DNA of 64,000 bases from Escherichia coli (GTDB lineage Bacteria; Pseudomonadota; Gammaproteobacteria; Enterobacterales; Enterobacteriaceae), in assembly GCF_009931435.1 (NCBI RefSeq), contig NZ_CP043414.1. One strand, 5' to 3'. How positions within the stretch are numbered: position 1 is the first letter of the stretch; every line of letters starts with the position of its first letter. Shown in pieces: positions 2,842 through 63,093 of the stretch. The position numbers and the translations under genes were made by a program. The notes beneath the pieces are model-generated. The model saw only the letters and a program-made list of their open reading frames with translations, was not told the DNA's origin and searched no databases.

Positions 2842-2845
2842 GATT

Positions 2846-43341: not shown

Positions 43342-43791
43342 ATGAAGAAAGCAACACTTGTGATTGGCGTTATTGGCGCGGACTGCCATGCAGTAGGCAA
43401 TAAAGTTCTGGACCGCGTTTTTAGCAACCATGACTTCAGAGTCATTAATCTGGGCGTAATGGTCAGCCAGGACGAATATATTGATGCTGCCATTGAAACT
43501 GGCGCTGACGCGATTGTCGTCTCCTCTATCTATGGGCATGGCGATATCGATTGTCTGGGCATGCGCGAACGCTGCATCGAGCGTGGGCTGGGTAACATCC
43601 TGCTCTATGTGGGCGGTAACCTGGTGGTCGGAAAACATGACTTCGCTGACGTGGAAACCAAGTTCAAAGAGATGGGATTTGATCGCGTCTTTTCCCCAAG
43701 TCATGACTTAGAAGATGTTTGTCAGCTGATGGCCCACGATATCAACCAACGTCATGACGTTGATACTCGCATTCTTGAAGAGGCAATCTGA
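43342..43791 (+). CDS. glutamate mutase sigma subunit (B12-binding subunit)
   Basis: ORF 43279-43791; start placed at ATG 43342 after AAAGGA; [18 protein letters not shown] resembles the clostridial MutS/GlmS cobalamin-binding motif. Confidence 0.88.
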
Positions 43792-45179: not shown

Positions 45180-45197
45180 CAATTAAGGCTGCAATCA

Positions 45198-47884: not shown

Positions 47885-47887
47885 CAA

Positions 47888-49258
47888 ATGGCTCGTTCTT
47901 TTAAAGTCTTATCGCCAACGGCAATCCTCGGGTATGGATTCCCGGAAGAGAGCTTCCGCAAAGCGATGGCAGAATCGCCCGATCTGATCGCCGTTGATGC
48001 AGGCTCTTCCGATCCTGGCCCCCACTACCTCGGGGCGGGCAAACCGTTTACCGATCGCGCAGGGGTCAAGCGCGATCTGCGCTATATGATCACCGCAGGC
48101 GTGCAAAATAATATACCGGTGGTGATCGGAACGGCCGGCGGTTCTGGTGCCGCTCCACACCTGGAGTGGTGCCGAGAAATAATTCATGAGATTGCCCGGG
48201 AAGAGCACCTCGCGTTCTCGATGGCGCTGATCCCGGCAGACGTTGACAAAGCCATCGTCCACCAGGCGCTGGATAACGGCAAAATCACAGCGCTGGATTT
48301 TGTCCCGCCGTTAACCCACGACGCGATTGACGAAAGTACGTATATCGTCGCGCAAATGGGCATCGAACCCTTCCAGCAGGCGCTGAAAGAAGGCGCGCAA
48401 GTGGTGCTGGGCGGGCGCGCTTACGACCCGGCCTGCTTTGCTGCGCTACCGATCATGCAAGGCTTTGATGAAGGTCTGGCGCTGCATTGTGGGAAAATCC
48501 TTGAATGCGCGGCAATCGCCGCAACGCCCGGCTCAGGCTCTGACTGTGCGATGGGCATCATTGATGACAACGGCTTTACGCTGAAGACATTTAATCCGAA
48601 GCGTAAATTTACCGAAACGTCAGCGGCTGCACACACACTGTATGAGAAATCCGATCCCTACTTCCTGCCAGGACCTGGCGGCGTGTTGAACCTGAAAGGC
48701 TGCACATTTAAAGCGGTCAATGACGGCGAAGTGTACGTCAGCGGTTCTAAGCATGAAGAAACGCCGTATGCCCTGAAACTGGAAGGTGCGCGGCGGGTGG
48801 GCTTCCGCTGTCTGACCATCGCAGGAACGCGCGACCCGATCATGATCGCCGGGATCGATAAAATCATCGATGAAGTCAAAACCAGCGTTTCGCGTAACCT
48901 GTCGCTCGACGATGACAGCATTCGCATCAATTTCCACCTGTACGGCAAAAACGGGGTGATGGGCGACCATGAACCGATGCAAACTGCCGGGCATGAGCTG
49001 GGGATTGTCCTTGATGTAGTTGCACCGACCCAGGATATTGCCAATAGCGTTTGCTCGCTGGTGCGCTCTACCATGCTGCACTACGGCTATGAAAACCGCA
49101 TCGCTACCGCAGGCAACCTGGCGTTCCCGTTCTCCCCTTCTGATATCCAGGGCGGGCCGGTATACGAATTTTCCATATATCACCTGATTGAAGCCAACGA
49201 CGCTCTGCGTTTTGATTTCCATATTGAACAGGTGACGCCAGAAGGAGTTCAGGCATGA
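47888..49258 (+). CDS. conserved protein of unknown function, tentatively DUF1446 / AtuA-like
   Basis: 456 aa ORF 3 nt after the lyase gene; family assignment from memory of an LIAVDAGSSDPGP-type N-terminal pattern. Confidence 0.7.
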   Translation: MARSFKVLSPTAILGYGFPEESFRKAMAESPDLIAVDAGSSDPGPHYLGAGKPFTDRAGVKRDLRYMITAGVQNNIPVVIGTAGGSGAAPHLEWCREIIHEIAREEHLAFSMALIPADVDKAIVHQALDNGKITALDFVPPLTHDAIDESTYIVAQMGIEPFQQALKEGAQVVLGGRAYDPACFAALPIMQGFDEGLALHCGKILECAAIAATPGSGSDCAMGIIDDNGFTLKTFNPKRKFTETSAAAHTLYEKSDPYFLPGPGGVLNLKGCTFKAVNDGEVYVSGSKHEETPYALKLEGARRVGFRCLTIAGTRDPIMIAGIDKIIDEVKTSVSRNLSLDDDSIRINFHLYGKNGVMGDHEPMQTAGHELGIVLDVVAPTQDIANSVCSLVRSTMLHYGYENRIATAGNLAFPFSPSDIQGGPVYEFSIYHLIEANDALRFDFHIEQVTPEGVQA

Positions 49259-49572
49259 AACAGTCAATTGTCTCACTGGCGCAAGTCATTCGTTCGAAAA
49301 ATGCCGGACCTTACGAACTGGTTTTAGATATTTTATTTAAAACGAAAGAAAACTATGAGCGAGTAAAATCATCAGGGCAATTAACCCCAGAACTGATTGC
49401 GCGCTTATATCATGTTGAACCTGACTTTATTCATCGTATTGTCTGGTTTGATCCTTCTAACGCAGTAAAAATTGTCATGCCACGAGATATTATCTCCGGG
49501 AATGTAGGTGACAATGATGTCTATGGCGCACAGCAACATGCACCTTTATTAAATATGAGTTTCGATTTGTAA
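49255..49572 (+). CDS. small conserved protein, tentatively DUF4387-like partner
   Basis: 105 aa ORF overlapping the preceding gene by 4 nt (ATGA coupling). Confidence 0.7.
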   Translation: MKQSIVSLAQVIRSKNAGPYELVLDILFKTKENYERVKSSGQLTPELIARLYHVEPDFIHRIVWFDPSNAVKIVMPRDIISGNVGDNDVYGAQQHAPLLNMSFDL

Positions 49573-49658
49573 AAATCCGAACACTTTTAGCCAACTGACA
49601 TCCCGTCACTTATTGCAGCTCAACACTTCAGCTATTTGTAAGGTTGTTATAGCAGGTA

Positions 49659-49684
49659 GATGCCTGAATCTCTATTCAGGCATC
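49659..49684 (+). other. intra-operon stem-loop (possible attenuator or processing site)
   Basis: 10-bp stem gatgcctgaa / ttcaggcatc with 6-nt loop; no clean U-tract. Confidence 0.3.
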
Positions 49685-49732
49685 CACTTCTCCTGATTCT
49701 GATTTATCGCCGTGCACCTGATGGAGGAAAAA

Positions 49733-51013
49733 ATGAAGAAAATAAGTTTAACCACGATGATTCTTTTGGCGCTGGTACTTGGAATGATTATCGGCGTAGT
49801 GCTCAATAACACTGCTTCACCGGAAACAGCAAAACTCTATGCGCAAGAAATATCGATATTCACGACGATTTTCTTACGACTGATAAAAATGATTATCGCT
49901 CCGTTAGTGGTCTCTACCCTGGTGGTAGGTATTGCTAAAATGGGCGATGCCAAAGCCCTTGGTCGTATTTTTTCTAAAACACTCTTTTTATTTATTTGCG
50001 CCTCATTGCTGTCAATTGCCTTAGGCTTGATAACGGTAAATTTCTTCATGCCAGGCACAGGAATTAATTTTGTTGCACACGGTGCCGAAACCACCGGAGT
50101 GGTCGCGTCAGAACCCTTTACACTAAAAGTATTTATTTCGCATGCTTTCCCCACCAGCATTGTCGATGCCATGGCGCACAATGAAATTTTGCAAATCGTG
50201 GTGTTCTCAATTTTCCTCGGCTGTAGCCTGACGGCGATTGGTGAGAAAGGCAGCGCCATCGTTCACGCCTTAGATTCGCTGGCACATGCCATGTTAAAGC
50301 TCACTGGCTACGTCATGCTCTTCGCTCCCCTGACCGTATTCGCCGCTATTTCAGCATTGATTGCTGAACGAGGACTGGCAGTTATGGTGAGCGCCGGGAT
50401 CTTTATGGGTGAATTTTATTTCACCATGTTATTACTTTGGGTGCTGCTTATCGGTCTGGCCATCGTTTATGTCGGCCCCTGCATCAGACGCCTGACCCGC
50501 GCCCTTTCAGAACCCGCCCTGCTGGCATTTACCACATCCAGTTCTGAAGCTGCTTTTCCGGGAACGCTTGAAAAACTGGAGCAATTTGGCGTTTCCCCCA
50601 AAATTGCCAGCTTTGTCTTACCCATTGGCTACTCATTTAATCTCGTTGGATCAATGGCCTACTGCTCCTTCGCCACAGTTTTCATCGCCCAGGCCTGCAA
50701 TATCCATTTATCCATCGGTGAGCAAATCACCATGCTGTTGATCCTGATGTTGACCTCGAAAGGAATGGCTGGCGTACCACGCGCCTCAATGGTGGTTATC
50801 GCCGCCACGCTCAACCAGTTCAATATTCCGGAAGCGGGGCTGATCTTGCTGATGGGCGTTGATCCGTTCCTTGATATGGGGCGTTCCGCGACAAACGTCA
50901 TGAGCAACGCAATGGGCGCTGCGATGGTGAGTCGGTGGGAAGGCGAACATTTCGGCGAGGGCTGTCGGGGTAAAGCATTAAAACCCAATGAATCGAACGT
51001 TGCTCTGCCCTGA
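49733..51013 (+). CDS. dicarboxylate/amino acid:cation symporter (DAACS, GltP/DctA family)
   Basis: ORF 49712-51013; start placed at ATG 49733 after GGAGG; polytopic membrane protein. Confidence 0.85.
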   Translation: MKKISLTTMILLALVLGMIIGVVLNNTASPETAKLYAQEISIFTTIFLRLIKMIIAPLVVSTLVVGIAKMGDAKALGRIFSKTLFLFICASLLSIALGLITVNFFMPGTGINFVAHGAETTGVVASEPFTLKVFISHAFPTSIVDAMAHNEILQIVVFSIFLGCSLTAIGEKGSAIVHALDSLAHAMLKLTGYVMLFAPLTVFAAISALIAERGLAVMVSAGIFMGEFYFTMLLLWVLLIGLAIVYVGPCIRRLTRALSEPALLAFTTSSSEAAFPGTLEKLEQFGVSPKIASFVLPIGYSFNLVGSMAYCSFATVFIAQACNIHLSIGEQITMLLILMLTSKGMAGVPRASMVVIAATLNQFNIPEAGLILLMGVDPFLDMGRSATNVMSNAMGAAMVSRWEGEHFGEGCRGKALKPNESNVALP

Positions 51014-51120
51014 GGGGGATCTTAAGCAATCAGAAGCCAATGACTACGCATTTTTATAAGCCGGATCATGAAGTTAGACGGCAATTAAGTAACACTAACG
51101 TTTAAGGTGAAAAGTGAAAT

Positions 51121-52773
51121 ATGTCCAAACCATTTATCTGGCAAGAACCGTTTCTACAAAATAAAGACGGTACAGAATATACATTAATTAGCGATCAACA
51201 TATTACAGTAACGGAATTAGACGGCGAAGAAGTAATAAAAATCGCTCCTGAAGCATTAACGCTGCTTGCCCGGCAGGCATTTTATGAAGCCTCTTTTTTC
51301 TTACGTTCCGCTCATTTGCAACAGGTCGCCAGCATTCTTAACGATCCGCAGGCCAGCAGTAATGATAAATACGTTGCGTTGCAGTTATTACGTAATGCTG
51401 AAGTCTCAGCAAAAGGGGTATTACCCAACTGTCAGGATACCGGCACCGCAACTATTGTTGCCAGTAAAGGGCAACAGATATGGACGGGAGGTAACGACGC
51501 TGAAGCCTTAAGCAAAGGCATTTACAGTACTTTCCAGGAAAATAATCTGCGCTTTTCACAAAATGCGCCGCTGGATATGTATACCGAAGTCAATACGCAA
51601 ACCAATCTTCCGGCGCAGATTGATATCAGCGCTGTCGCTGGTAATGAGTACCATTTTCTCTGTGTTAATAAAGGGGGCGGCTCCGCCAATAAAGCCGCAC
51701 TTTATCAGGAAACCAAATCCTTATTGCAACCAGAAAAACTGACCGCATTTTTAATCGACAAAATGAAATCGTTGGGCACGGCCGCCTGCCCGCCCTACCA
51801 CATCGCCTTTGTCGTCGGAGGGCTTTCAGCCGATCAAACCTTAAAAGTTGCCAAGCTGGCCTCTACGAAATATTACGACAATTTGCCCACCAGCGGAAAC
51901 GAGCAGGGACAAGCATTCCGTGATATTGAGCTGGAAAAAGCGTTGCTCGAGGCCAGTCAGCAATTTGGTATTGGTGCGCAATTTGGGGGTAAATATTTCG
52001 CTCATGATATTCGCGTCATTCGTCTGCCGCGTCACGGTGGCTCTTGCCCGATAGCTATGGCGCTCTCCTGTTCTGCCGATCGCAATATCAAAGCAAAAAT
52101 TAACAAGCATGGTATCTGGCTGGAAAAACTCGAACACAATCCGGGGCAATATATTCCAGCCTCACTGCGGGAAGAAAATCACGCGCAACATGTACAGCTG
52201 GATCTAAACCGTCCGTTGCGTGACGTGATGCAGGATCTCGCCAGATTACCGGTAGGTACCCGCGTGTCGTTAAGTGGTCCCATCGTAGTGGCGCGCGATA
52301 TCGCCCACGCAAAAATAAAAGCGCGGCTGGATAGCGGCGAATCGATGCCGGATTACCTGAAGCATCATATTGTCTATTACGCTGGCCCGGCGAAAACACC
52401 GGAGAACATGGCCTGCGGTTCACTGGGTCCAACCACGGGCGGTCGAATGGACGGTTATGTCGAAACCTTCCAGGCGGCTGGCGGCAGTCTGGTAATGTTA
52501 TCGAAAGGTAACCGCAGCCAGCAGGTCACCGATGCCTGTCACAAACATGCAGGCTTCAATCTGGGAAGTATTGGCGGTGCAGCTGCGTTACTGGCGCAAG
52601 AATATGTCAAAAGTCTGCGTTGCCTGGAATACCCGGAGCTGGGTATGGAGGCGGTGTGGATGATGGAAGTGGAAAATCTGCCCGCATTCATCCTGGTTGA
52701 TGATAAAGGCAATAATTTCTTTAGCCAGTTTGAGCAGCAACACCGCTGCGCCAGTTGCCCTGCGGGACATTAA
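51121..52773 (+). CDS. fumD: class I (Fe-S) fumarate hydratase family protein, mesaconase candidate
   Basis: 550 aa ORF, FumA/FumB length and fold; symbol from memory of the O157:H7 cluster. Confidence 0.8.
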
Positions 52774-52782
52774 GGAAAATGA

Positions 52783-53385
52783 ATGGAAGCGCGAATTTCA
52801 ACTGAACGGCATGTGCAGCGCCAACAGAAATTGAAGGAACAGGTCGATACGCGCGTCGCGGCGGCGATAGAGAAAAAAGGGATCTTGATTGTTTTCACCG
52901 GCAACGGCAAAGGGAAATCCACTGCCGCGTTTGGTACTGTGACGCGCGCGGTGGGTCATGGCAAAACGGTGGGGGTTGCGCAGTACATCAAGGGGCAATG
53001 GGACAACGGCGAATACAACCTTCTCCAGCCGCTGGGGGTTGAGTTTCATATTATGGGAACCGGTTTTACCTGGGAGACTCAGAACCGGCAAGCGGATATC
53101 GACGCGGCGAAAGAGGTCTGGTCGGAAAGCAAACGGATGCTGGCTGACAAGCGTTACGACTTAGTGGTGCTTGATGAGCTGACCTATATGCTGGCTTACC
53201 ATTATCTGGACACCGAAGAAGTGATCACTTCTCTGCAAAACCGCCCGGCACAACAAAGTGTCATTGTCACCGGACGCAGTTGCCACAGTCAGATATTAAA
53301 AATGGCGGATACGGTCAGCGAAATCCGCCCCGTCAAACATGCTTTTGATAACGGCATTCAGGCGCAGCCGGGTATCGACTGGTAA
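52783..53385 (+). CDS. cob(I)alamin adenosyltransferase, CobA/BtuR family paralog
   Basis: 200 aa ORF with P-loop IVFTGNGKGKSTAAFG; close to remembered K-12 BtuR. Confidence 0.85.
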   Translation: MEARISTERHVQRQQKLKEQVDTRVAAAIEKKGILIVFTGNGKGKSTAAFGTVTRAVGHGKTVGVAQYIKGQWDNGEYNLLQPLGVEFHIMGTGFTWETQNRQADIDAAKEVWSESKRMLADKRYDLVVLDELTYMLAYHYLDTEEVITSLQNRPAQQSVIVTGRSCHSQILKMADTVSEIRPVKHAFDNGIQAQPGIDW

Positions 53386-53418
53386 TAACTGCGCCTGGCA
53401 TCCAGCCAGGCGCAGGTT

Positions 53419-54324
53419 TTACATCTCCTGCGGTACGACCGATTTCGCCAGCAACCATTCACGAAATTGCTGCAAGTGCGGCGAGTCAGACTTCTCTTCC
53501 TGCCACGTCATAATAAAACGATTACCGGTACGAATAGGCACATCACAGGGAATCACCATATCGCCACTATCCAAATCATGTTGAATAGCGAACCGTGGTA
53601 ACAGCGCCACGCCGAGATTAGAGCGCACGGCGGCAATCAGCATTGAAAGCAAATCGAAACGTGGTCCGTTATTGACCAGCGGACTGCTAACGCCAGATAA
53701 AGCAAACCACTCTTCCCAGCCAGTAATACGGGTGCTTTGATGCAGAAGTGGTAACTCAGTAAGCAGTTCTGCCACTGACAGTTTTTGATCGGACATTGCA
53801 AGCAAACTGCCGCTGCATACCGGCAAAATCTCCTCTTCAAAGAGATATTCTACTTCCGCCCAGGGCGCGCAAAAATTTTCGCGCATAATGACAGCATCGT
53901 ACTCCCGATTAAGAAAATCGCCGTTATTAGCTAAAGAATGAATATTAACAATAATATCGGGATGTAACTTTGTGAATTCATGTAAATTTGGGATTAACCA
54001 GTGGGTACTAAACGTAGGATTAACGGCAAGTTCAATAACCTGAACCGTAGGCTGCCAGGTCATAATCGTATTGGTATCGCGCTCCAATTTATTTAATGTT
54101 TCTTTTACTATCCCCAGGTAATACTTCCCTGCATCATTAAGAAAAATGCGTTTTTTAGAGTGTGAAAATAACGGAGTATGTAAAAATTCCTCCAACGCAC
54201 TTACTTGTCTGAATACTGCACTTTGGGTTAACGCTAACTCCTCTGCCGCTCTGGTATAACTTTCATGACGTGCGACGACCTCAAAAGTCACCAGCAGCTC
54301 CGTTTTAGGTATTTTTCCTCGCAT
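53419..54324 (-). CDS. LysR-family transcriptional regulator
   Basis: 301 aa ORF, N-terminal HTH (ESYTRAAEELALTQSAVFRQVSALEEFL). Confidence 0.85.
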   Translation of the reverse strand: MRGKIPKTELLVTFEVVARHESYTRAAEELALTQSAVFRQVSALEEFLHTPLFSHSKKRIFLNDAGKYYLGIVKETLNKLERDTNTIMTWQPTVQVIELAVNPTFSTHWLIPNLHEFTKLHPDIIVNIHSLANNGDFLNREYDAVIMRENFCAPWAEVEYLFEEEILPVCSGSLLAMSDQKLSVAELLTELPLLHQSTRITGWEEWFALSGVSSPLVNNGPRFDLLSMLIAAVRSNLGVALLPRFAIQHDLDSGDMVIPCDVPIRTGNRFIMTWQEEKSDSPHLQQFREWLLAKSVVPQEM

Positions 54325-54480
54325 AATGCCGTCCCTTAAAAATAGTTTAAACCATCAAAAATACATTACTTATTACGAAGTAATGGTAACCAAAGCAGCA
54401 ATAAATAATTTATAAGAATCATGATTAACATTTATAACCCAGTAAGCCTGGCGTGACAATTATCTTAATCAGATAATAAT

Positions 54481-54509
54481 AATCCGAAAAGCACAGCACC
54501 TTTCGGATT
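54481..54509 (-). terminator. hairpin downstream of the HAL-like gene (weak terminator candidate)
   Basis: Stem atccgaaa / tttcggat with 11-nt loop, followed on the minus strand by ATTATTATTAT. Confidence 0.35.
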
Positions 54510-54594
54510 ATCAGGAATTACATTAAGTGAAAATTATTAAATTGATATCATTTATCATATCTGTGGATATAATGATAAACAATCAACATAGATT

Positions 54595-56265
54595 TTATTT
54601 TTGATTTATAGCATATCCCTCTAAGAATTTTTGCGATGCTTCAATATCCGGGGTAAAGACCCGATCCTGACTGACAAATGGCACGACTTGACGATAAGCG
54701 GTGAACATCGCTTTTGTTGATTTGCCTAACGCCAGCTGTGGATCGGCTTGCAAGCGCAAATCAATCGCCTGGGCAGAATGCATCAGTTCAATGCCATAAA
54801 TGACATTCAAATTATCAACAACCTGTTTCAATCTTCTCGCCGCGTGGTCGTTATTGGCACCCGTATCTTCAATGCCTCCGGCTACCGGTTGAATATCGAA
54901 AGAAACCGGGTTAGCGAGATCGACATTTTCCGCATGCAGCGCAACAAACGGGATATGTAATGAACCGAAGCCATGACCTTTATTACCTGCTGCCGACAGG
55001 AAGCGTGACAAACCGGTAAAGTGATCATCTTCAAGATGCAGCGAGCGGCGCATACTGTTATGTGAAACATGCACTAACGCCACGGTCAGACGCTGGGTGG
55101 CAAGCGCAACCGGTAACGATTCGAAATTCGCCGTCGGGAAGATCCCACCGCTGATTGCCCCATCTTTAACAAAATATTGCGCGACCTGACTGGAGTCCTG
55201 ATACGCTTTGTCTGCATTCAGCACGGTTGCCGGGTTGTCATCGGAACTGTTGATCTGCACGGTAATGGTATCTTCAGCATCGCGCAACGCGCGCATTGCC
55301 TCAGAAATGGTATACACCGTCGTTCTGAACGATAACGGATCCTGCAATGCACGTTTGTCATCCTTATGCCATAAATAAGAACCACTTAACGCATCGCGAA
55401 TCTCTTTAGCGGAATCAGCCAACTGCGGGAAAGGACGCACGGCGATCGACTGCGGCAGTACCGGCGCGACATTGCCATTCAACGCTTCGAGGCTCATGGC
55501 GAAAACCACCGGACTGACATTCAGCACCTGGCGTGCCGACCGTACCGCTTCAATTGCATATGCTGTTCCGACACTGTTGTTCGACAAAATCGCCAGCATA
55601 TCTTTACCCTGCGGGACCAGTGGTTTAAGCCCCACTTTCACCAGCGCATCGCCACCACTCATTTCCACGCCATTAACCCGCGCTTTCCACTCGCCCATCA
55701 TCACCAGACCAACGTGTGAAGCGAGCATAATATCCGCTGCGCCGATACTTCCCCGCGCCGGAATTAACGGCGTAACGCCTCGATTAATAAACTCGGCATA
55801 CAACTCGGCAATATAAGGCTGCGCGCCGGTTTGCCCATGCAACATAGTATTTAAACGTAACACCATTGAGAGACGGGCAAGATAATCCGGCAACATCGGA
55901 CCGACGCCCGCAGAATGGGCGCGCAGCGCGGCAGCATTAAATTTTTTCGATGCGTCAATCACCTCAGGCGTTAAATTTCCTTTGGCATCAAATATGGGCT
56001 GATCTTTATTTAGCCCCACGCCCACGGTTAAGCCATAAACAGGCGTACCTGAATGCGCGGCAGTCATCACCAGATCATAACTTTTTTCCATGCGCTCCAT
56101 GGCGTTCGACGCGATTTTGACGCCGTTATCACCTAATGCAATTGACCAGGCCTGGTCAATAGAGAGATGTTCGCCATCCAGCGTAATGGTTGATTTTGCC
56201 ATCGCGATGGAGCAAACGCTCCAGAGCACAACGGTGACAGTGACTCTGCGTATCAATCCTTTCAT
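54595..56265 (-). CDS. aromatic amino acid lyase (HAL/PAL) fold protein lacking the MIO triad, signal-peptide-like N-terminus
   Basis: 556 aa ORF; conserved GSVGASGDLAPLAH block reads GSIGAADIMLASH (codons checked at 55729-55752); N-terminus MKGLIRRVTVTVVLWSVCSIAMA; AAGGA 6 nt upstream of ATG 56265. Confidence 0.8.
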   Translation of the reverse strand: MKGLIRRVTVTVVLWSVCSIAMAKSTITLDGEHLSIDQAWSIALGDNGVKIASNAMERMEKSYDLVMTAAHSGTPVYGLTVGVGLNKDQPIFDAKGNLTPEVIDASKKFNAAALRAHSAGVGPMLPDYLARLSMVLRLNTMLHGQTGAQPYIAELYAEFINRGVTPLIPARGSIGAADIMLASHVGLVMMGEWKARVNGVEMSGGDALVKVGLKPLVPQGKDMLAILSNNSVGTAYAIEAVRSARQVLNVSPVVFAMSLEALNGNVAPVLPQSIAVRPFPQLADSAKEIRDALSGSYLWHKDDKRALQDPLSFRTTVYTISEAMRALRDAEDTITVQINSSDDNPATVLNADKAYQDSSQVAQYFVKDGAISGGIFPTANFESLPVALATQRLTVALVHVSHNSMRRSLHLEDDHFTGLSRFLSAAGNKGHGFGSLHIPFVALHAENVDLANPVSFDIQPVAGGIEDTGANNDHAARRLKQVVDNLNVIYGIELMHSAQAIDLRLQADPQLALGKSTKAMFTAYRQVVPFVSQDRVFTPDIEASQKFLEGYAINQK

Positions 56266-56315
56266 TGTGTTTCCTTATTTTGATGAGTTTAACAACGGAT
56301 TACTGCAACAACCTC

Positions 56316-57266
56316 TTAATTTGTTTTATCTGTTTTTCCTCGACGGACAATAGTGGCAGCCAGGCGAGCGGCAACCTTCGCGGTCAAATTATCGCGGTCC
56401 AAATCTGGGTTCAGTTCGGCAATATCCGCAGCAATCAACTTCTCGCTACCGGCAATTAAATTCACAATAGCCTCAGCAATATTTAATGGCACGCCTAACG
56501 GCGAAGGCGCAGAAACGCCAGGAGCCTGATAACCCGGTAAGACATCAAGACAAATCGTTAAATAAATGGCGTCACACGCCTGAATATCTGCCGAGAGCGC
56601 ATTAACAATCTCATGCAAACCACGTTCAAATTGCAGAGATTCATCCAGCCAATAACGCACACCAGGACAATCAGCACGATCAAATAACGCCTGAGTGTTG
56701 GCATAACGGCTTATTCCCAGCACGCGATAATGAAACGGTTTGCCATGCTGCGCATTCCACTCCTGCATCTGCCGAAACGGCGTACCCGAATTGGCCTTTT
56801 CCGCCATCCGCAAATCAAAATGCGCGTCAAGGTTGACTATCAGCAGTCGCCGAATATCCGGACGCGACTGCATAATCCCCTGAAATGTTCCCCATGCCAC
56901 TTCATGACCGCCGCCCAGAACGACCGGCAAACTGCCGCGCGCAATTGCCATAGCCACGTTTTCCGCCAGACGGTTTTGTGCGGGTTCCAGCGCGTGGTCT
57001 TCGCTTTGCACGTCACCCATGTCAAAAATAGCGCCTTCATGGAGCACTGGCATATTGCCCAACATGCTGCGTAATGCGCCCGGTCCGCCTGCTGCGCCCG
57101 CTCGCCCACCGTTACGTTGCACCCCGTCATCGACGGCAAAACCAATCAGCGTACTGCCTCCATGACTTTGTTCGGTAAACGGTTTTACATGCTGATGCCA
57201 GCGGGTGCTGACGCCAGTTTCCTGCGAGTCAACACGTCCACTCCATGCCATAAATGTTTGCTTCAT
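56316..57266 (-). CDS. hutG: formimidoylglutamase
   Basis: ORF 56316-57305; start placed at ATG 57264-57266 overlapping hutI stop (TAATG); arginase-fold motifs GGGHE and DAHFD. Confidence 0.85.
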   Translation of the reverse strand: MKQTFMAWSGRVDSQETGVSTRWHQHVKPFTEQSHGGSTLIGFAVDDGVQRNGGRAGAAGGPGALRSMLGNMPVLHEGAIFDMGDVQSEDHALEPAQNRLAENVAMAIARGSLPVVLGGGHEVAWGTFQGIMQSRPDIRRLLIVNLDAHFDLRMAEKANSGTPFRQMQEWNAQHGKPFHYRVLGISRYANTQALFDRADCPGVRYWLDESLQFERGLHEIVNALSADIQACDAIYLTICLDVLPGYQAPGVSAPSPLGVPLNIAEAIVNLIAGSEKLIAADIAELNPDLDRDNLTAKVAARLAATIVRRGKTDKTN

Positions 57267-58477
57267 TACCAACTCCTTTTTCCGCCGACAATCAGCCCCA
57301 GACAAGGCTGATGTCCAAACCAGTAAGCCAGCTCACGCGGATGATTAAGATCCCAAACAGCCATATCCGCCCGTAGTCCCGGCGCAAGTTCACCCCGATC
57401 AACAAGTCCAAGCGCTTTTGCCGCATGACGTGTAACGCCCTGAACGGCTTCCAGCGGGGTCATGTGAAACAGCGTACAGGCCATATTGATCATCAACTGC
57501 AATGACATGTTGGGAGACGTTCCGGGGTTATGATCCGTGGAGATGGCAATCGGCACACCTGCGGCCCGCAGAGCGACAATCGGCGGCAGATGGGTTTCGC
57601 GCAGGAAGTAATAAGCACCGGGAAGCAAAACCGCCACTGTTCCAGCCGCTTTCATGGCGGCGATCCCCGACTCGCTCAGGTACTCCAGATGATCGCAGGA
57701 GAGTGCAGAAAACGCCGCTGCCAGCGCCGCGCCTTGCTGGTCAGAAAGCTGTTCGGCATGCAGTTTTACAGGTAATCCATAGCTTTGCGCTTTACTGAAA
57801 ACGCGCCGTACCTGCTCTGGAGTAAAGGCGATGTTTTCACAAAAAGCATCAACTGCATCAATCAGCCCCTGTTCATGCAACACGCACATCCAGTCGCAAA
57901 GCGCCGTAATGTAATCATCACTGCGCCCGGCAAACTCTGGCGGCAGGCTGTGCGCCCCGAGAAACGTAGACTGAATATGTAACCCGGTAGATTGCTGCAA
58001 GCGGCGGATCACGCGTAAACAACGCGCTTCATCTTCCAGCGTTAAGCCATAACCCGATTTGATTTCAAGCGTACTGACGCCTTCACGTTGCCAGTTTCGC
58101 AGTCGCTGCGCCGCCAGTTCAAACAGCTGTGTTTCGCTGGCTGCCCGCGTGGCATTAACCGTAGATAAGATCCCGCCGCCCGCTCTGGCGATATCTTCAT
58201 AAGCCACGCCTTGCAACCGCATCTCAAACTCGTTCGCCCTCTGGCCGCCATACACCAGATGTGTATGACAATCTACCAGACCGGGTGTCAGCAACTTACC
58301 CTGTAGATCGTGTTCTTCTGTAATATCAGCCGTCAGTTCACGGGGGATCTGCGTGGCCTTCCCAAGCCAGACAATCGAGTCACCGCGGCTGATTAATGCA
58401 CCGTTTTCAATCACCCCCCAATCATTAGCCGAAAGCGTCGTCAGGGTGGTATTTCGCCAGAGCGTAAATGCACTCAT
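57266..58477 (-). CDS. hutI: imidazolonepropionase
   Basis: ORF 57266-58513; start placed at ATG 58477 (MSAFTLWRNTTL) overlapping hutD stop (ATGA); amidohydrolase DCHTHL motif. Confidence 0.85.
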   Translation of the reverse strand: MSAFTLWRNTTLTTLSANDWGVIENGALISRGDSIVWLGKATQIPRELTADITEEHDLQGKLLTPGLVDCHTHLVYGGQRANEFEMRLQGVAYEDIARAGGGILSTVNATRAASETQLFELAAQRLRNWQREGVSTLEIKSGYGLTLEDEARCLRVIRRLQQSTGLHIQSTFLGAHSLPPEFAGRSDDYITALCDWMCVLHEQGLIDAVDAFCENIAFTPEQVRRVFSKAQSYGLPVKLHAEQLSDQQGAALAAAFSALSCDHLEYLSESGIAAMKAAGTVAVLLPGAYYFLRETHLPPIVALRAAGVPIAISTDHNPGTSPNMSLQLMINMACTLFHMTPLEAVQGVTRHAAKALGLVDRGELAPGLRADMAVWDLNHPRELAYWFGHQPCLGLIVGGKRSW

Positions 58478-59064
58478 AAGGATTTTTCCCCTCGTAGATA
58501 ATAAATCCACCAACCCGCCAGCTCGCCGACGGAGACTTTTTGCTGTGGTACGAAACGCCAGGAGTTGCCATCAGGCGCAAACCGCCATAACAACGTATTC
58601 GCCGTTACAAACACCCTGTTCTCGCCGCTTATCCACTCCCCTTCACACAGCGTGAACAGCCCCGCTTGCGCATGCGCCGGAGGGAGCCAGTCAATGACGC
58701 TTTGCACACGACGCATCCCCGCATCGCCTTCCCGCGCCATAATATTCAGATCGCGAACCCCGCCGCCCAGCAGCTGACAATCAGGCATTGCTTCTCCAGG
58801 GAAAATTAAGGCGGGATCGTGACGTTGCAGGTTGATGATCGAATCGGCAAACGTTAGCTTCACCCCTTCCCCGTCGAGGATCGCGAGGCCACGAACCACG
58901 CCAGGCCACGCTGAAAAAGGGCCATCCTGACTGACATTCGCCATACTGATGCGCAACAACCAGTTTTCATCATCGGGCCAGGCAAGCAGCTGTCGGGTAA
59001 ACCCCCCGCCGTTGCGCCACGGTTGCAGCGGCTTATCCATTGCAGAAATCAGCATCGGTTCCAT
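58474..59064 (-). CDS. hutD: HutD-family protein
   Basis: 196 aa ORF with WRNGGGFTRQL, matching the HutD N-terminal signature. Confidence 0.8.
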   Translation of the reverse strand: MEPMLISAMDKPLQPWRNGGGFTRQLLAWPDDENWLLRISMANVSQDGPFSAWPGVVRGLAILDGEGVKLTFADSIINLQRHDPALIFPGEAMPDCQLLGGGVRDLNIMAREGDAGMRRVQSVIDWLPPAHAQAGLFTLCEGEWISGENRVFVTANTLLWRFAPDGNSWRFVPQQKVSVGELAGWWIYYLRGEKSL

Positions 59065-59065
59065 A

Positions 59066-60475
59066 TTAAGACTCGGGATAAATCGTATAAGCAGGAACGC
59101 AGGTGGTGCGTTTGGCCCACGGGTAATAGATAACGGCGGTAATTAACAAGCCGACAATCCAGGAGATATCCGCCCCATCCATCAGGACAGAAATGGGTCC
59201 CTGATACAGTTTTTGATTCAGGAAGGGGATCTGCACCAACACGCCTACGCCATAGCACGTCAAAGCGGTTTTGTTATACGCGCCATAACGCCCTTCCGGG
59301 GTATAAAGCGCTGGAATATCGGTTTTACCTTGTGAGATGAAGTAATAATCGATGAGATTAATGGCACTCCACGGAACAAATACCGTCAACAGTAGCAGAA
59401 CGAAGTTTTTGAAATTATTCAAAAAATCTGCGCTTGCCGCCAGCGCGACGACCATCGACAACAGCACGAACCCTACAACGTAGGCAGCACGAACACGCTG
59501 TGAAACCTGACTGCGATCATTAAAGGCGCTGACGGTCGCCAGAATCGACATAAAGCCACCGTAGGCATTCAAACAGTTCACCGTCAGTTTGCCGCAAACA
59601 ATCACCATATAAATCAGAATGGCGAAGGTGGGTCCGGCTAACTCGCCCATAAAACCAACCTGATCCTTCAGGAAGTTAGCACCACAGGCCGCAACAAGTA
59701 CGCCAAACGTCATGGCACATTGCGCACCAAGCGTGGTTCCCAGAAAGGTGGCAAAGAAGATTGATTTTGCTGGCGTATCAGAGGGTAAATAGCGGGAATA
59801 ATCAGAGGCGTAAGGGGCAAACGTTAATTGCCATCCGGCAGAGAGAGCAATCGTTAATAAAAAGACCGACAGACTAAATGGCTTTTGACCAAATGCCGCA
59901 GCCACATCGTAGTGACCGCTAAGTTGAGTGGCCAGGTAAATAAACCCCAGAATACTTAATATCCCTGCAACACGGCCAACGACGTGAATTAGTTTATAAC
60001 CGACCAATGCGATCATCGCGGTCAGCATGCCGAAAATAATAATTCCGGTCGATGCCGATTCGAAACCAAATATCCGGTTAATCGCCTGACCGGATAATAC
60101 TGTACCCGTCGCGGCAAATCCAAGGTACATAATAATCACCATCAGTAACGGTAGCGCCGCTCCTTTAACGCCAAAGCGGATACGACTGGAGATCATCTGG
60201 GGTAATCCCAGCTTTGCCCCCTGCGACGAGTGCAATGCCATTACTGCACCACCAATAATATTACCGATTAATAAACCAATTATTGCTGACATAGCTTCGG
60301 AGCCAAAAATAATCGCTAACGCGCCGTCCACCACTGCGGTAATTTGTAAGTTAGCACTTAGCCATAAAGTAAACTGACTAGATGGCGCGCCGTGGCGAGC
60401 AGACTCAGGAACGGCGTTAATCGTATTTGATTCTAATACTGGCTTTTTACTGCGGATAGGGCTGCTTGATTCCAT
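59066..60475 (-). CDS. NCS1-family permease (CodB-like)
   Basis: ORF 59066-60520 starts on TTG; start placed at ATG 60475 with AGGAG 8 nt upstream; CodB-like RFGVKGAALP segment. Confidence 0.8.
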   Translation of the reverse strand: MESSSPIRSKKPVLESNTINAVPESARHGAPSSQFTLWLSANLQITAVVDGALAIIFGSEAMSAIIGLLIGNIIGGAVMALHSSQGAKLGLPQMISSRIRFGVKGAALPLLMVIIMYLGFAATGTVLSGQAINRIFGFESASTGIIIFGMLTAMIALVGYKLIHVVGRVAGILSILGFIYLATQLSGHYDVAAAFGQKPFSLSVFLLTIALSAGWQLTFAPYASDYSRYLPSDTPAKSIFFATFLGTTLGAQCAMTFGVLVAACGANFLKDQVGFMGELAGPTFAILIYMVIVCGKLTVNCLNAYGGFMSILATVSAFNDRSQVSQRVRAAYVVGFVLLSMVVALAASADFLNNFKNFVLLLLTVFVPWSAINLIDYYFISQGKTDIPALYTPEGRYGAYNKTALTCYGVGVLVQIPFLNQKLYQGPISVLMDGADISWIVGLLITAVIYYPWAKRTTCVPAYTIYPES

Positions 60476-60638
60476 GAAAAAGTCTCCTGCAAAATGAGAG
60501 GTCATTTTTTGAAACAGCAATAGAGGGTCGGGAGATATTTTTCTCGACGATGTAAAAATATTTTTTGATAATTATTGTTATACAGGCGAATTATTCTCCG
60601 CCTGTATTAGCGCAAATATTAAATGACGGCGTTAATAT

Positions 60639-62336
60639 TTAGCGAATCATCGGTAATTTCAGACCATAGTTTTTGGCACATTCAATTGCCGCTTCATAAC
60701 CCGCATCCGCATGACGCATAACCCCGGACGCACAGTCATTCACCAGCACACGCGCCAGACGTTTTTCGGCTTCTTCGCTACCATCGGCAACAATAACCAT
60801 CCCGGCGTGTTGTGAATACCCCATCCCGACGCCGCCGCCATGATGCAGGGATACCCACGTTGCTCCCCCTGCAGTGTTGAGCAAACCGTTGAGCAACGGC
60901 CAGTCAGAAACCGCATCACTGCCATCAAGCATGCTTTCGGTTTCGCGGTTCGGGCTGGCGACAGAACCGGTATCAAGATGATCGCGCCCAATCACAATCG
61001 GTGCTTTTAGTTCACCGTTGCGCACCATTTCGTTGAATGCCAGCCCCGCCAGGTGACGCTCACCAAGCCCCAGCCAGCAAATACGTGAAGGAAGTCCCTG
61101 GAAGGCAATGCGCTCGCGCGCCATATCCAGCCAGCGATGCGTCAGTACGTTATTGGGGAACAACTCTTTAATTTTGGCATCGGTTTTATAGATATCTTCC
61201 GGGTCGCCAGACAGCGCCACCCAACGGAATGGACCTTTGCCTTCACAAAACATTGGACGAATATAAGCCGGAACAAAGCCCGGGAAATCAAAGGCATTTT
61301 GCAGACCTTCGTTGAAGGCCACCTGGCGGATGTTGTTGCCATAATCGACAACCGGGATCCCCATCGCCTGGAAGTCCAGCATCCCCTGAACATGTGCGAC
61401 GCAGCTCTGTGCCGCTTCTTTTTGCAATCTGGCGTGTTGCTGTGGATCCTGCTGTGCAGCGCGCCATTGTTCTACGCTCCAGCCCATCGGTAGGTAGCCA
61501 TAAACCAGATCGTGAGCGGAAGTCTGGTCGGTTACCAGATCCGGCTTAATCGCCCCCTGATGCGCACGTTTCACCAGCTCAGGAACAATTTCCGCCGCAT
61601 TGCCCAACAGCGCGATTGAAACAGCGTCTTTGCGCTCGGTATGGTATTTAATCAGCGCCAGTGCATCATCAAGATCTTTCGCTTGTTTATCGACATAACG
61701 GGTACGCAGTCGGAAGTCGATGCTACTTTGCTGGCACTCGATATTTAATGAGCACGCCCCCGCCAGAGTCGCCGCCAGCGGTTGTGCGCCACCCATACCA
61801 CCGAGCCCCGCGGTCAGGATCCATTTTCCACTCAGCGAATTGTTGTAGTGCTGACGACCCGCTTCAACAAAGGTTTCGAACGTTCCCTGCACAATGCCCT
61901 GACTACCGATGTAGATCCACGAGCCAGCGGTCATCTGGCCGTACATGAACAGACCTTTACGATCCAGTTCATTGAAATGATCCCAGTTGGCCCATTGCGG
62001 TACCAGGTTAGAGTTGGCAATCAATACGCGCGGCGCATCGGTATGCGTTTTAAACACGCCTACGGGTTTACCGGACTGAACCAGCAGTGACTCATCAGCT
62101 TCCAGATTTTTCAGTGATTCAAGGATCTTGTCAAAACACTCCCAGTTACGTGCCGCACGACCAATACCACCATACACCACCAGATGCTGTGGATTTTCGG
62201 CAACGTCGGGATCAAGGTTGTTCTGCAACATCCGGTAGGCTGCTTCAATTTGCCAGTTTTTGCAGTGCAGCTGCGTACCGTGTGGCGCATGGATTACACG
62301 GCTGGTATCAATACGCGGGTCTGAAGGCTTACTCAT
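60639..62336 (-). CDS. hutU: urocanate hydratase
   Basis: ORF 60639-62435; start placed at ATG 62336 ([12 protein letters not shown]) with AGGAG upstream, 565 aa; long identity runs with remembered HutU ([33 protein letters not shown]). Confidence 0.88.
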
Positions 62337-62402
62337 GAATCTTCTCCTGTTACTTGATAAAATTAAACGCTGTAATCGGTCAGAAAAAACGAACGAATGA
62401 AT

Positions 62403-62419
62403 ATAGAAACGGTTTCTAT
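62403..62419. promoter_or_regulatory. candidate operator palindrome upstream of hutU
   Basis: atagaaac-g-gtttctat, 8-1-8 perfect dyad about 70 bp upstream of hutU start. Confidence 0.3.
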
Positions 62420-62454
62420 AATTCCCGTTTATCATTTTGTATTATTAATTCATT

Positions 62455-62487
62455 TAGTGAATATTGTTTGTCTTGGTATATTCACTA
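62455..62487. promoter_or_regulatory. candidate operator inverted repeat upstream of hutU
   Basis: tagtgaatat-N13-atattcacta, perfect 10-bp arms. Confidence 0.3.
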
Positions 62488-63093
62488 TGAATATAAATTC
62501 AAAACCACCAACGCGTTGTATGCGAATTCAATATGCTTAATTTAACTTGTCGAAAAAGTGATATTGTTGGCAAAATATTTTCTAATTTGAACATATGAAT
62601 ATGATGAGATTGCAAGATGTCAGTAATTTAATTATCTAAGAAATGCGTTAATAACGACCAGATATTAGCGTAACAACAGGTGTTCCGACACCACACAGTG
62701 CGCATAACACAATGATATTTAAAATAAGATCTTCATTATTCGTCATAAAGACATGTTTTATTATCATTAATAATCCATTTGTTTTCATCCCACTTTTGAT
62801 AATTAAAAAACGGCAACAATGGCTAGTTACCCGACGTAAAAATAGGCGTAAAAATAAATCTTAAAATATATCCACTGGAAATTATCATTTTTCATATTTT
62901 ACAATCTGGCGTCGATAACTTACCCCTTTTATAACACCCCCGTTTGTTAATAGTCTTTTTTATCTTGTATTGATCGTCATTGCTGCATACACTACGCGCG
63001 TTTTCTTTCCCTTTTGCTGGCTGCTGACCGGAAAGACAAAATTACCCTCGCAATACAGGGGGTTGATTAACGTCTATATTTCAGGACAGCGTT

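Follow-up and report, generated by a model that had tools for sequence, protein, structure and literature searches.

A predicted exported, MIO-less trimethylammonia-lyase in a hut operon of Escherichia coli

Introduction

The hut operon in the stretch of Escherichia coli DNA analysed here (64,000 nucleotides, referred to below as the window) raises a simple question. In the place of hutH it carries a gene whose product resembles histidine ammonia-lyase (HAL) in fold, has no triad from which the MIO cofactor could be made, and begins with what looks like a signal peptide. What does this enzyme act on, where does it act, and how would it be joined to a Hut pathway that is cytoplasmic?

The answer bears on trimethylamine. 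TMAO derives from trimethylamine that gut bacteria produce, and the sources of trimethylamine are being actively catalogued. Hercynine lyase, which releases trimethylamine from the betaine of histidine, has been known as an enzyme type only since 2025 (bioRxiv 10.1101/2025.08.13.670108).

Results and discussion

Family assignment and fold

The gene occupies 54595..56265 on the minus strand and encodes 556 amino acids, from an ATG start to a stop codon at 54595-54597. The preliminary description of this DNA had called the product a HAL-fold protein that is not an ordinary HutH, and the reading frame and both parts of this claim are confirmed. The full-length Pfam model PF00221 matches residues 34-526 (E 2e-122). 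Against the hutH equivalog of NCBIfam (TIGR01225), however, the protein scores 277 bits, well under the cut-off of 539, which on sequence criteria places it outside the histidases.

The preliminary description had also suggested a relationship to the MIO-less trimethylammonia-lyases, and had proposed a profile search, an alignment and a phylogeny. All of these have now been carried out, and they point the same way. The best sequence match in the PDB is ergothionase (6s7j, E 1.4e-86, as against 3.5e-48 for HAL). The AlphaFold2 model has a pLDDT of 94, and its top fold match is again 6s7j (E 1.3e-38, TM 0.95); HAL, TAM and PAL structures are matched with TM 0.8-0.95, as is characteristic of the aromatic amino acid lyase fold. 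In a neighbour-joining (NJ) tree the protein clusters within the no-MIO clade, far from the MIO histidases.

In many RefSeq records the gene is called hutH, or its product histidine ammonia-lyase; this naming is wrong.

Absence of the MIO triad and conservation of the active site

The loop at the site of Ala-Ser-Gly in MIO enzymes consists of residues 172-184 (GSIGAADIMLASH; 55714..55752, minus strand), and the triad is absent from it. Codons 55729-55752, the stretch in which the MIO block had been described as altered, translate to GSIGAADI. In alignments the loop GSIGAADIMLASH lacks one residue relative to GSVGASGDLAPLAH, and ergothionase shows the very same shortening. The tripeptides ASG, TSG, CSG, SSG and GSG occur nowhere in the 556 residues, the first three of these absences having been reported already; with no Ala-Ser-Gly, the lyase can have no MIO.

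The roles of the other active-site residues were assigned after the description of Swoo_3913, the hercynine lyase of Shewanella woodyi, and of HAL (bioRxiv 10.1101/2025.08.13.670108). Tyr77 (56035..56037, minus strand), which homologue alignments identify as the conserved tyrosine that abstracts the β-proton, is invariant or nearly so among 122 homologues, as are His117, Gln308, Arg314, Asn344 and Glu466. The residue set of a trimethylammonia-lyase is thus complete: a tyrosine base; Gln, Arg and Asn as ligands of the carboxylate; and His and Glu as ligands of the imidazole. By its sequence, its fold, its shortened loop and its catalytic residues the protein is a MIO-less trimethylammonia-lyase, and is predicted to release trimethylamine.

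The location of the gene in hutH's place, and the deletion of the hut operon from most E. coli lineages that retain the flanking island, might suggest a decayed and inactive HutH that has lost its MIO triad. We find this hardly credible, given the position of the protein inside the MIO-less clade, the integrity of all its catalytic residues and the confidence of the structural model. In addition, comparison with an 85% identical orthologue (L008) gives 237 synonymous and 73 non-synonymous codon differences, an excess of synonymous changes that indicates purifying selection.

The N-terminus and export

Codons 1-23 (MKGLIRRVTVTVVLWSVCSIAMA; 56197..56265, minus strand) are predicted to encode a Sec-type signal peptide, cleaved after Ala23 between AMA and KS. 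Its n, h and c regions are MKGLIRR, VTVTVVLWSVCSI and AMA followed by KS, with a charge of +3 and an AxA cleavage site, and the N-terminus holds the most hydrophobic 13-residue stretch of the lyase (Kyte-Doolittle 2.15). The AlphaFold2 model shows residues 2-21 as an isolated helix that is not part of the core. A Shine-Dalgarno sequence, AAGGA (56272..56276, minus strand), lies 6 nt upstream of the first ATG, while no Shine-Dalgarno-like sequence is found upstream of Met22; both observations agree with those made earlier.

The N-terminus is also conserved in the manner expected of a signal peptide. The L008 orthologue keeps the ATG, the frame and an equivalent Shine-Dalgarno sequence (GAGGA), although the rest of its upstream sequence has diverged from that of the query, and 11 of the 23 signal-peptide residues differ between the two while the hydrophobicity is kept. 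In comparison with a second locus (L009), all three codon changes in this stretch are synonymous. Nearly all Gram-negative homologues (those at 50-68% identity) have a signal peptide, and the Enterococcus homologues have none. On this comparative evidence we take the signal peptide to be real, as its Sec-like appearance had suggested, and we infer that the lyase itself is exported. The earlier remark that the periplasm would be an unusual place for this fold does not hold: the signal peptide is close to universal among these Gram-negative homologues, the Shewanella relatives have been treated experimentally as periplasmic enzymes, and periplasmic lyases for hercynine, ergothioneine and N-pi-methyl-hercynine have been characterised in Shewanella (bioRxiv 10.1101/2025.08.13.670108; 10.64898/2026.04.22.720169).

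Translation might instead start at Met22, in which case the lyase would be cytoplasmic and the permease of the operon (described below) would bring in the betaine itself instead of the product of its cleavage. GenBank records P0003 and P0004 do place the start there, giving 535 amino acids, and the resulting N-terminus, MAKSTITLDG, resembles those of signal-less homologues such as MKAIVLDG in Enterococcus. We nevertheless consider a start at Met22 very unlikely. The good Shine-Dalgarno sequence belongs to Met1; the 21 upstream codons remain open, hydrophobic and preceded by a Shine-Dalgarno sequence in L008, a diverged orthologue in which the non-coding sequence further upstream is not conserved; the changes relative to L009 are all silent; Met22 simply supplies the middle residue, x, of the AxA site; throughout the family, Gram-negative members carry signal peptides; and orthologues of the permease are found in hut operons of bacteria that have no such lyase.

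Two other kinds of export signal were considered and rejected. The Arg-Arg at residues 6-7 could indicate Tat export, which we discarded as the primary interpretation, given the short peptide, the absence of RR from L008 and the Sec-like signals of the family. The sequence WSVC is no lipobox, and a lipoprotein signal was also discarded.

The hut operon and its permease

All genes of the operon lie on the minus strand, and they overlap or abut. The first is hutU, urocanate hydratase (60639..62336), which scores 934 bits on TIGR01228 (cut-off 375). It is followed by an NCS1-family permease (59066..60475; PF02133/NCS1), a HutD-family protein (58474..59055; RefSeq annotation, with a weak match to the Ves family), hutI, imidazolonepropionase (57266..58477; 452 bits on TIGR01224, cut-off 298), hutG, formimidoylglutamase (56316..57266; 288 bits on TIGR01227, cut-off 229), and the lyase; the assignments of hutI and hutG agree with RefSeq. 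The three Hut enzymes are all above their equivalog cut-offs and a HutD-like gene is also present, so that the account of the rest of the operon as canonical stands. A LysR-family (GcvA-like) gene on the same strand, 270 bp downstream of the lyase (53419..54324), is a possible regulator; it is still present in strains that have lost the hut operon. A scan for promoters and terminators over 53300-63200 gave counts no higher than in shuffled sequences, and an Rfam scan of the whole window found nothing in or near the operon.

The permease between hutU and hutD was not mentioned in the preliminary description, and it is central to our interpretation. We propose that it is a urocanate importer of the HutTu type; HutTu of Pseudomonas is presumably also a member of the NCS1 family. 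HutTu is a urocanate transporter (PMC12977541, PMC8034625), and by analogy the cargo of the permease would be urocanate too. In Comamonas and Nocardia, permease orthologues (64-67% identity) directly precede urocanase in hut operons; the one in Nocardia has no HAL. In L008 an 85% identical permease adjoins the lyase orthologue. Import of the product by a hut-associated NCS1 permease would explain how a lyase in the periplasm can serve a Hut pathway in the cytoplasm, a connection that had been missed.

The specificity position and the substrate

His437 and Ile438 (54952..54957, minus strand), which form part of the motif SLHIP, align with Gln-Lys384 of the ergothionase of Treponema denticola (TdETL, PDB 6s7j). 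The alignments, together with the co-variation of motif and genomic context, suggest that this pair is a probable specificity determinant. In ergothionase Lys384 is the residue that binds the thiolate, and activity is reported to require it (bioRxiv 10.1101/2025.08.13.670108); it is absent here, with Ile438 in its place. MIO histidases have Q/H and V/Y at the same two positions.

Among about 270 relatives examined, the His-Ile/Val motif is confined to the clade of the lyase. Over more than 80 loci the motif tracks genomic context: genes with [IV]QK adjoin flavocytochrome c (43 loci) or thiourocanate hydratase (8 loci), those with TED adjoin another flavoprotein (16 loci), and those with LH[IV] adjoin hut/NCS1 genes or a CoA-transferase. 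The position equivalent to Lys384 amounts to a natural specificity experiment, in which the variants (Lys, Asn, Gln, Asp and Ile/Val) each go with a downstream enzyme of their own. Neither P0008 nor the sister clade from Enterococcus (LHV) has a hut context; they are found either with a CoA-transferase and an NMO-type reductase or in a hydroxyproline cluster, and the substrate of the clade may therefore not give urocanate everywhere.

The preliminary description had named hercynine and ergothioneine as candidate substrates. The replacement of Lys384 by Ile438, and the identity of hutU as a urocanase, favour the first of these and count against the second. Going by one pocket residue and the gene context, we consider that the substrate is most likely hercynine.

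A periplasmic ergothionase, converting ergothioneine to thiourocanate and trimethylamine, is what the closest relatives would lead one to expect: the nearest homologues (53-64% identity) have the lysine, the gene of the Lys-bearing Shewanella clade lies between the FAD and cytochrome subunits of a flavocytochrome, as described for SO_3057, and the best solved structure is an ergothionase. Furthermore, E. coli was reported in 1962 to degrade ergothioneine, and the gene responsible has never been found (PMC13405746). This assignment is nonetheless quite unlikely, since the residue essential for ergothionase activity is an isoleucine in the lyase. The neighbouring hutU, moreover, scores only 670 bits on the thiourocanate hydratase model, below the cut-off of 930, against its 934 bits on the urocanase model. 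No thiohydantoin desulfurase, thiourocanate reductase or flavocytochrome gene is found near the operon, unlike the Achromobacter locus, where thiourocanate hydratase and thiohydantoin desulfurase are both present.

A different N-methylated imidazole or aromatic betaine, for example a ring-methylated hercynine or a betaine not yet described, could also be the substrate, with the hut genes either taking a urocanate-like product or being unrelated. Loss of the lysine is not sufficient for activity on hercynine: SO_3299 also lacks it, yet accepts neither hercynine nor ergothioneine (bioRxiv 10.64898/2026.04.22.720169). The restriction of the His-Ile/Val motif to this one clade and the surroundings of its sister clade would fit such a substrate as well. 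We regard it as unlikely, though deserving of weight. The residues that hold the two imidazole nitrogens, His117 and Glu466, are conserved; the genes of the operon are tightly packed and include those whose products pass the equivalog cut-offs for urocanase, imidazolonepropionase and formimidoylglutamase; and the permease family is linked to hut genes in other bacteria.

Comparison with characterised lyases

The enzyme most like the lyase in its proposed function is Swoo_3913 (bioRxiv 10.1101/2025.08.13.670108), which is likewise a MIO-less HAL-fold protein with an N-terminal signal peptide, and which catalyses the reaction that we propose here, the periplasmic conversion of hercynine to urocanate and trimethylamine. 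In both enzymes a neutral residue replaces Lys384 (Asn439 in Swoo_3913, Ile438 here), and the numbering of the catalytic residues is nearly identical: Tyr77, His117, Gln308 and Arg314 are shared, with Glu467 corresponding to Glu466 and Asn339 to Asn344. The two are however only 38.6% identical, a value based on a Swoo_3913 sequence read by OCR from a Mascot page and containing some errors, and they occupy separate branches of the NJ tree, in which Swoo_3913 and representative P0124 lie apart from the query clade; hercynine specificity is therefore not transferable by orthology. The motif is TLQN in Swoo_3913 and SLHI in the lyase, and sequence comparison indicates that the change from Lys384 to Ile438 arose independently of the Asn in Swoo_3913. 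Both have a partner that consumes urocanate, but the partners differ: Swoo_3913 works with UrdA, a periplasmic urocanate reductase, in anaerobic respiration, whereas the lyase shares its operon with a canonical hutU and would feed urocanate, once imported, into the Hut pathway of the cytoplasm. Activity specific for hercynine and dependence on Mg2+ are among the defining properties of the Swoo_3913 type.

The closest relatives are periplasmic ergothionases of the SO_3057 type, found in Shewanella, Sutterella, Hafnia, Citrobacter and E. albertii (bioRxiv 10.64898/2026.04.22.720169), at 53-64% identity, where the Shewanella sequences are equated with SO_3057 by gene order and not by a deposited sequence. 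They share with the lyase the signal peptide and insertions relative to TdETL, but keep the lysine (GAIQK), and they adjoin flavocytochrome c subunits and a sigma-54 activator rather than hut genes. TdETL itself is 36% identical to the lyase; its loop, likewise MIO-less, is shortened in the same way, and its catalytic residues agree. It differs in having Lys384, no signal peptide, and neither of two insertions found in the lyase (around residues 89-100 and 349-371). HutH of Pseudomonas putida (PDB 1b8f) is 27% identical. It resembles the lyase in fold, in its place in the hut operon and, if our proposal is right, in its product urocanate, and it too has a hydrophobic residue (Val) at the position of Ile438. 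The lyase differs from it in having no Ala-Ser-Gly or MIO, in falling far under the hutH cut-off, and in its predicted export.

A proposed pathway

These comparisons lead us to the following model. The lyase would be exported by the Sec pathway and cleaved between AMA and KS, and the mature enzyme would be active in the periplasm. Tyr77 would take the β-proton from hercynine (histidine betaine, that is, N-alpha-trimethylated histidine), and trimethylamine would depart without an electrophilic cofactor, to be freed outside the cell. The remaining urocanate would be brought into the cell by the NCS1 permease, and HutU, HutI and HutG would convert it to glutamate and formamide. On balance we lean towards this model of periplasmic hercynine cleavage followed by urocanate import. 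What is directly supported is that the protein belongs to the family, lacks MIO, has kept the catalytic residues, begins with a signal peptide and is encoded beside canonical Hut genes. What is new is the change at the specificity position, from Lys384 to Ile438, and the wiring of the enzyme to a hut operon in place of a periplasmic-reductase neighbour.

A broader reading, which we regard as plausible but somewhat short of probable, is that a subset of E. coli, together with E. marmotae, has a previously undescribed hercynine pathway. It would comprise a lyase that acquired its hercynine specificity independently of the Shewanella enzyme, with a His-Ile pocket descended from periplasmic ergothionases, and that cleaves the betaine outside the cytoplasm; import of urocanate only; and a Hut pathway that does without HutH. 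It would be a source of trimethylamine.

Significance and distribution in E. coli

If the model is true, hercynine joins the known trimethylamine precursors for Enterobacteriaceae, and carrier strains would be enterobacteria that directly make trimethylamine from a compound taken in with the diet or derived from ergothioneine. It would also give periplasmic trimethylammonia-lyases a second use, namely the gain of a nutrient by cleavage outside the cytoplasm and import of one product, and not the supply of a respiratory electron acceptor. The lyase gene would then also be the sole candidate to date for the degradation of ergothioneine/hercynine reported in 1962. That study, by Wolff, is said to have possibly used E. 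coli W. In E. coli W, mngRAB lies between sucD and cydA as in K-12, and the lyase is absent.

A megablast search of the complete E. coli genomes gave no match to a Lys-bearing ergothionase of the E. albertii type. According to a 2026 paper, E. coli is without an ergothionase homologue (PMC13405746); against this statement, a full-length trimethylammonia-lyase gene is present in 144 of 5,426 complete E. coli genomes (~2.7%). Strain R32_14_1F (NZ_CP074749) is one carrier. A further 836 complete genomes retain only a 138-nt remnant of it.

Family assignment and catalytic residues

The protein encoded at 54595–56265 on the minus strand (556 codons) is a full-length member of PF00221 according to profile searches, but its hutH equivalog score is only 277 bits, against a cut-off of 539. 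Among all PDB sequences, it matches the MIO-less Treponema denticola ergothionase (TdETL, PDB 6s7j) by far the best, with an E value of 1.4e-86, while histidases start at 3.5e-48. Residues 172–184 read GSIGAADIMLASH, and none of the tripeptides ASG, TSG, CSG, SSG and GSG occurs anywhere in the protein. The loop in TdETL, SSIGEGDITTLSH, is one residue shorter, as it is here. The structure predicted by AlphaFold2 from 44 homologues is confident (pLDDT 94.1, pTM 0.91), and its top structural match is again 6s7j (E 1.3e-38, TM 0.95), followed by HAL, TAM and TAL structures.

Tyr77 as the catalytic base, Gln308, Arg314 and Asn344 as ligands of the carboxylate, and His117 and Glu466 as ligands of the imidazole are all present, and are essentially invariant across 122 aligned homologues; these roles are taken from Bertsova et al. 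(bioRxiv 10.1101/2025.08.13.670108), who also argue that trimethylamine leaves well enough to dispense with MIO. We consider it highly probable that the protein is a trimethylammonia-lyase. Compared with an 85%-identical orthologue, the mature part has 237 synonymous and 73 non-synonymous codon differences, and the gene is therefore under purifying selection. This excess rules out a decayed hutH, and an inactive relic is extremely improbable. The preliminary description of the MIO-less loop, the Shine-Dalgarno sequence, the N-terminus and the canonical hut genes was correct in every particular, and its core idea, that a MIO-less trimethylammonia-lyase stands in the place of HutH, holds.

Signal peptide and start codon

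The sequence AAGGA lies six bases upstream of the first ATG of the lyase, and nothing comparable is found in the region before Met22. Residues 1–23 begin with three positive charges and end in Ala-Met-Ala, and no stretch of the protein is more hydrophobic than the one between them; in the model, residues 2–21 fold as one helix apart from the globular core, whose first element is strand 25–29. The signal peptide was judged comparatively, against the N-termini of homologues. Among the 120 closest proteins, almost every Gram-negative one has a signal-peptide-like start of 20–30 residues with a small-x-small end, just ahead of a conserved [IV]-x-L-D-G. Such starts are found in homologues from Sutterella, Shewanella, Hafnia, Citrobacter, Leminorella, E. 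albertii and Burkholderiales, while those from Enterococcus start directly at MKxIVLDG, and lyases translated from 80 genome loci follow the same pattern.

In the 85% orthologue, 11 of the 23 signal peptide residues differ; reading frame, ATG, hydrophobicity and AMA site are nevertheless preserved, and a GAGGA again lies upstream, beyond which conservation of the non-coding sequence ends. In a 97%-identical allele, all three changes within codons 1–23 are synonymous. Two shorter GenBank annotations (P0003 and P0004) begin at Met22, which is the middle residue of the predicted cleavage site. Because the upstream peptide is kept across the homologues, the orthologue and the allele, these starts are very probably wrong. 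Export of the lyase is thus predicted with good confidence, and a cytoplasmic enzyme translated from Met22 is very unlikely.

A periplasmic location had been described as unusual for this fold. This was reasonable before 2025, but is contradicted by two preprints from one laboratory on periplasmic, leader-bearing, MIO-less lyases of Shewanella (bioRxiv 10.1101/2025.08.13.670108, 10.64898/2026.04.22.720169), so that the enzyme type, periplasmic location included, has been known since 2025. Swoo_3913 acts specifically on histidine betaine (hercynine) (bioRxiv 10.1101/2025.08.13.670108), SO_3057 is an ergothionase, and the substrate of SO_3299 is N-pi-methyl histidine betaine (bioRxiv 10.64898/2026.04.22.720169). 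According to the two preprints, each of the three genes adjoins a periplasmic flavocytochrome or urocanate reductase, for which the enoate product serves as respiratory electron acceptor. The partner in Shewanella is thus a respiratory reductase, whereas here the partners are cytoplasmic Hut enzymes.

Substrate specificity

The authors of these preprints place the determinant for the thiolate of ergothioneine at the position of TdETL Lys384, where ergothionases have Lys, Swoo_3913 has Asn439 and SO_3299 has Gln434. In our alignment, Ile438 of the lyase occupies this position, preceded by His437 (GSLHIPF, compared with GTIQKTF in TdETL); Lys is retained in 103 of the 120 nearest homologues. MIO-containing histidases have Gln or His at the first of these two positions and Val or Tyr at the second, and the pocket beside imidazole C2 therefore resembles that of enzymes binding unsubstituted imidazole. 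A pocket with Ile in place of Lys argues against ergothioneine as the main substrate, which we consider quite unlikely. SO_3299 provides a cautionary example, in that it also lacks Lys, yet accepts neither hercynine nor ergothioneine; another methylated histidine derivative is accordingly a minor but real possibility as the substrate. Hercynine is the substrate that we favor.

Among the aligned homologues, only four groups have the His-Ile/Val pair: E. coli with E. marmotae, the 85% orthologue (from a metagenome), the 68%-identical homologue P0008, and a signal-less clade from Enterococcus. In a neighbor-joining tree without support values, they form one clade nested within the Lys-bearing periplasmic group, and Swoo_3913 and its representative lie on a separate branch. 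The lyase is 53–64% identical to Lys-bearing proteins and 38.6% identical to Swoo_3913, which has Asn439 rather than Ile. On these grounds, its Lys would have been lost independently of that of the known hercynine lyase, and the resulting His-Ile pocket is new.

Of the collected loci, 43 with the motif [IV]QK have an adjacent gene for the FAD subunit of flavocytochrome c, and 8 with this motif have a hutU homologue (approximately 48% identity) nearby; the Achromobacter homologue exceeds the thiourocanate hydratase cut-off and has a thiohydantoin desulfurase alongside. The motif TED is adjacent to a different flavoprotein in 16 loci, and LH[IV] adjoins either hut/NCS1 genes or a CoA-transferase/NMO pair. 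This covariation of motif and neighboring genes supports the Lys384-equivalent position as a putative specificity determinant.

The hut operon and its permease

The operon genes lie on the minus strand and abut or overlap, in the order hutU (60639–62336), NCS1 permease (59066–60475), hutD (58474–59055), hutI (57266–58477), hutG (56316–57266) and, last, the lyase. HutU, HutI and HutG score above their NCBIfam equivalog cut-offs. HutU is a urocanase (934 bits, cut-off 375), and falls under the cut-offs for thiourocanate hydratase (670 vs. 930) and S-methyl-thiourocanate hydratase (671 vs. 880). The region between hutU and the divergent rtcB (62337–63093, about 750 bp) is very AT-rich, and the 270-bp spacer between the lyase and a LysR gene is AT-rich; no Rfam family matched in either, and promoter-like sites are no more frequent there than in shuffled sequences.

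Among the 80 loci from species-representative genomes, the only one with the lyase within a hut operon is the E. coli-type locus, represented by the 97% allele from a MAG labelled Citrobacter sp. Orthologues of the permease (60–72% identity) are widespread. The order in Comamonas testosteroni is hutC, HAL, hutC, permease, hutU, hutD, hutI, while a Nocardia genome has hutC, permease, hutU, hutI, hutG and no histidase, the gene content of a urocanate-utilisation operon. The transporter HutTu is presumably also an NCS1 family member. In the 85% orthologue locus, the lyase is adjacent to an 85%-identical copy of the permease on a contig with no other hut genes; the pair therefore travels together. 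Pseudomonas hut operons encode HutTu as a dedicated urocanate transporter (PMC12977541, PMC8034625).

Because the operon carries a hut-linked permease, a periplasmic first enzyme can be reconciled with a cytoplasmic pathway. We propose that hercynine arrives in the periplasm, where the lyase, Sec-exported and cleaved after Ala23, would act on it: Tyr77 would take the beta-proton and trimethylamine would be expelled, giving trans-urocanate, which the permease would bring in for HutU, HutI and HutG to convert to glutamate and formamide. On balance we favor this model as a whole, by a modest degree. It is new for such a lyase to be recruited into a catabolic Hut operon that lacks HutH and encodes a urocanate-type permease.

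A glutamate fermentation cluster (43342–53385) directly adjoins the operon, and encodes methylaspartate mutase S/L/E, methylaspartate ammonia-lyase, AtuA-family and DUF4387 proteins, a dicarboxylate/amino-acid symporter, a class I fumarate hydratase (mesaconase-like) and cobO. Since the Hut pathway ends in glutamate, the island may provide one route from hercynine or urocanate via glutamate to fermentation products.

Distribution in E. coli

The window is E. coli chromosome; the nearest complete genome is strain R32_14_1F (99.8% identity). The accessory island is situated between cydA and sucD, a site occupied by mngRAB in K-12 and W; the lyase gene is absent from the W genome. Two hypothetical genes without a RefSeq family (41273–42800) lie at the island edge, between cydA and the methylaspartate mutase genes. 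The window opens (1–4513) within a lambdoid prophage (bet, exo, xis, int) that is integrated beside ybhC and is unrelated to the lyase.

The full-length gene occurs in 144 of 5,426 complete E. coli genomes, at 93.7–99.9% nucleotide identity. A further 836, including O157:H7 and O55:H7, have only its last 138 nt (54595–54732). In these strains the match (53400–54732) spans the LysR gene, the spacer and the remnant, up to a junction with sucD. It has the look of a uniform scar, left by a deletion that took out rtcB and the operon from hutU into the lyase gene, most of which is gone; the glutamate mutase/methylaspartate ammonia-lyase cluster is still in place, and the LysR regulator persists without the operon.

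RefSeq names the gene 'HAL/PAL/TAL family ammonia-lyase'; the label 'hutH: histidine ammonia-lyase' in some records is a misannotation. According to a 2026 paper, E. coli lacks an ergothionase homologue, and a 1962 report of the activity is doubtful (PMC13405746). By its sequence, the lyase gene is a homologue of the kind described as absent, and the occurrence of this enzyme type in E. coli is new.

Other lyase clades

The Enterococcus loci (L002–L004, L011–L013 and L070; lyase at approximately 9001–10587) form a signal-less sister clade with the motif SLHVP and 60–62% identity, and their gene order always runs from a sigma-54 activator through a CoA-transferase, an MFS transporter and the lyase to an NMO/FMN-type oxidoreductase. 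These neighbors suggest that the enoate product is used reductively in the cytoplasm, in a CoA-dependent manner; such a use appears to be undescribed.

Achromobacter agilis (L084, 3549–10605; also L077 and L080–L088) has an ergothioneine catabolic cluster, with a thiohydantoin desulfurase (595 bits, cut-off 440), a thiourocanate hydratase (1043 bits, cut-off 930), an MFS acid/H+ symporter and an MBL hydrolase. The N-terminus of the Lys-bearing lyase in this cluster, read from the start codons predicted in these GC-rich genomes, resembles a signal peptide. It would provide a second example of a cytoplasmic pathway supplied by cleavage in the periplasm and, if true, contradicts the statement that catabolic ergothionases are cytoplasmic.

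In a paralogous group from Sutterella, Parasutterella, Turicimonas and Duodenibacillus (L015, L017, L045, L048–L056, L060 and L062), Thr-Glu-Asp replaces Ile-Gln-Lys at the putative specificity position, and the neighboring gene always encodes an FAD flavoprotein of another kind, which shares only about 32% identity with its ergothionase-linked counterpart. Both lyase types are present in several gut Sutterellaceae, which implies a further substrate.

P0008 (L007, 9001–10659, a metagenome contig) is the closest non-Escherichia His-Val member with a signal peptide. Its cluster has no hut genes and encodes a DHDPS-like protein, an aldehyde dehydrogenase, Ldh_2, a proline racemase-like protein, DAO subunits, OprD and an amino-acid permease; from these neighbors, it looks like a hydroxyproline catabolic cluster.
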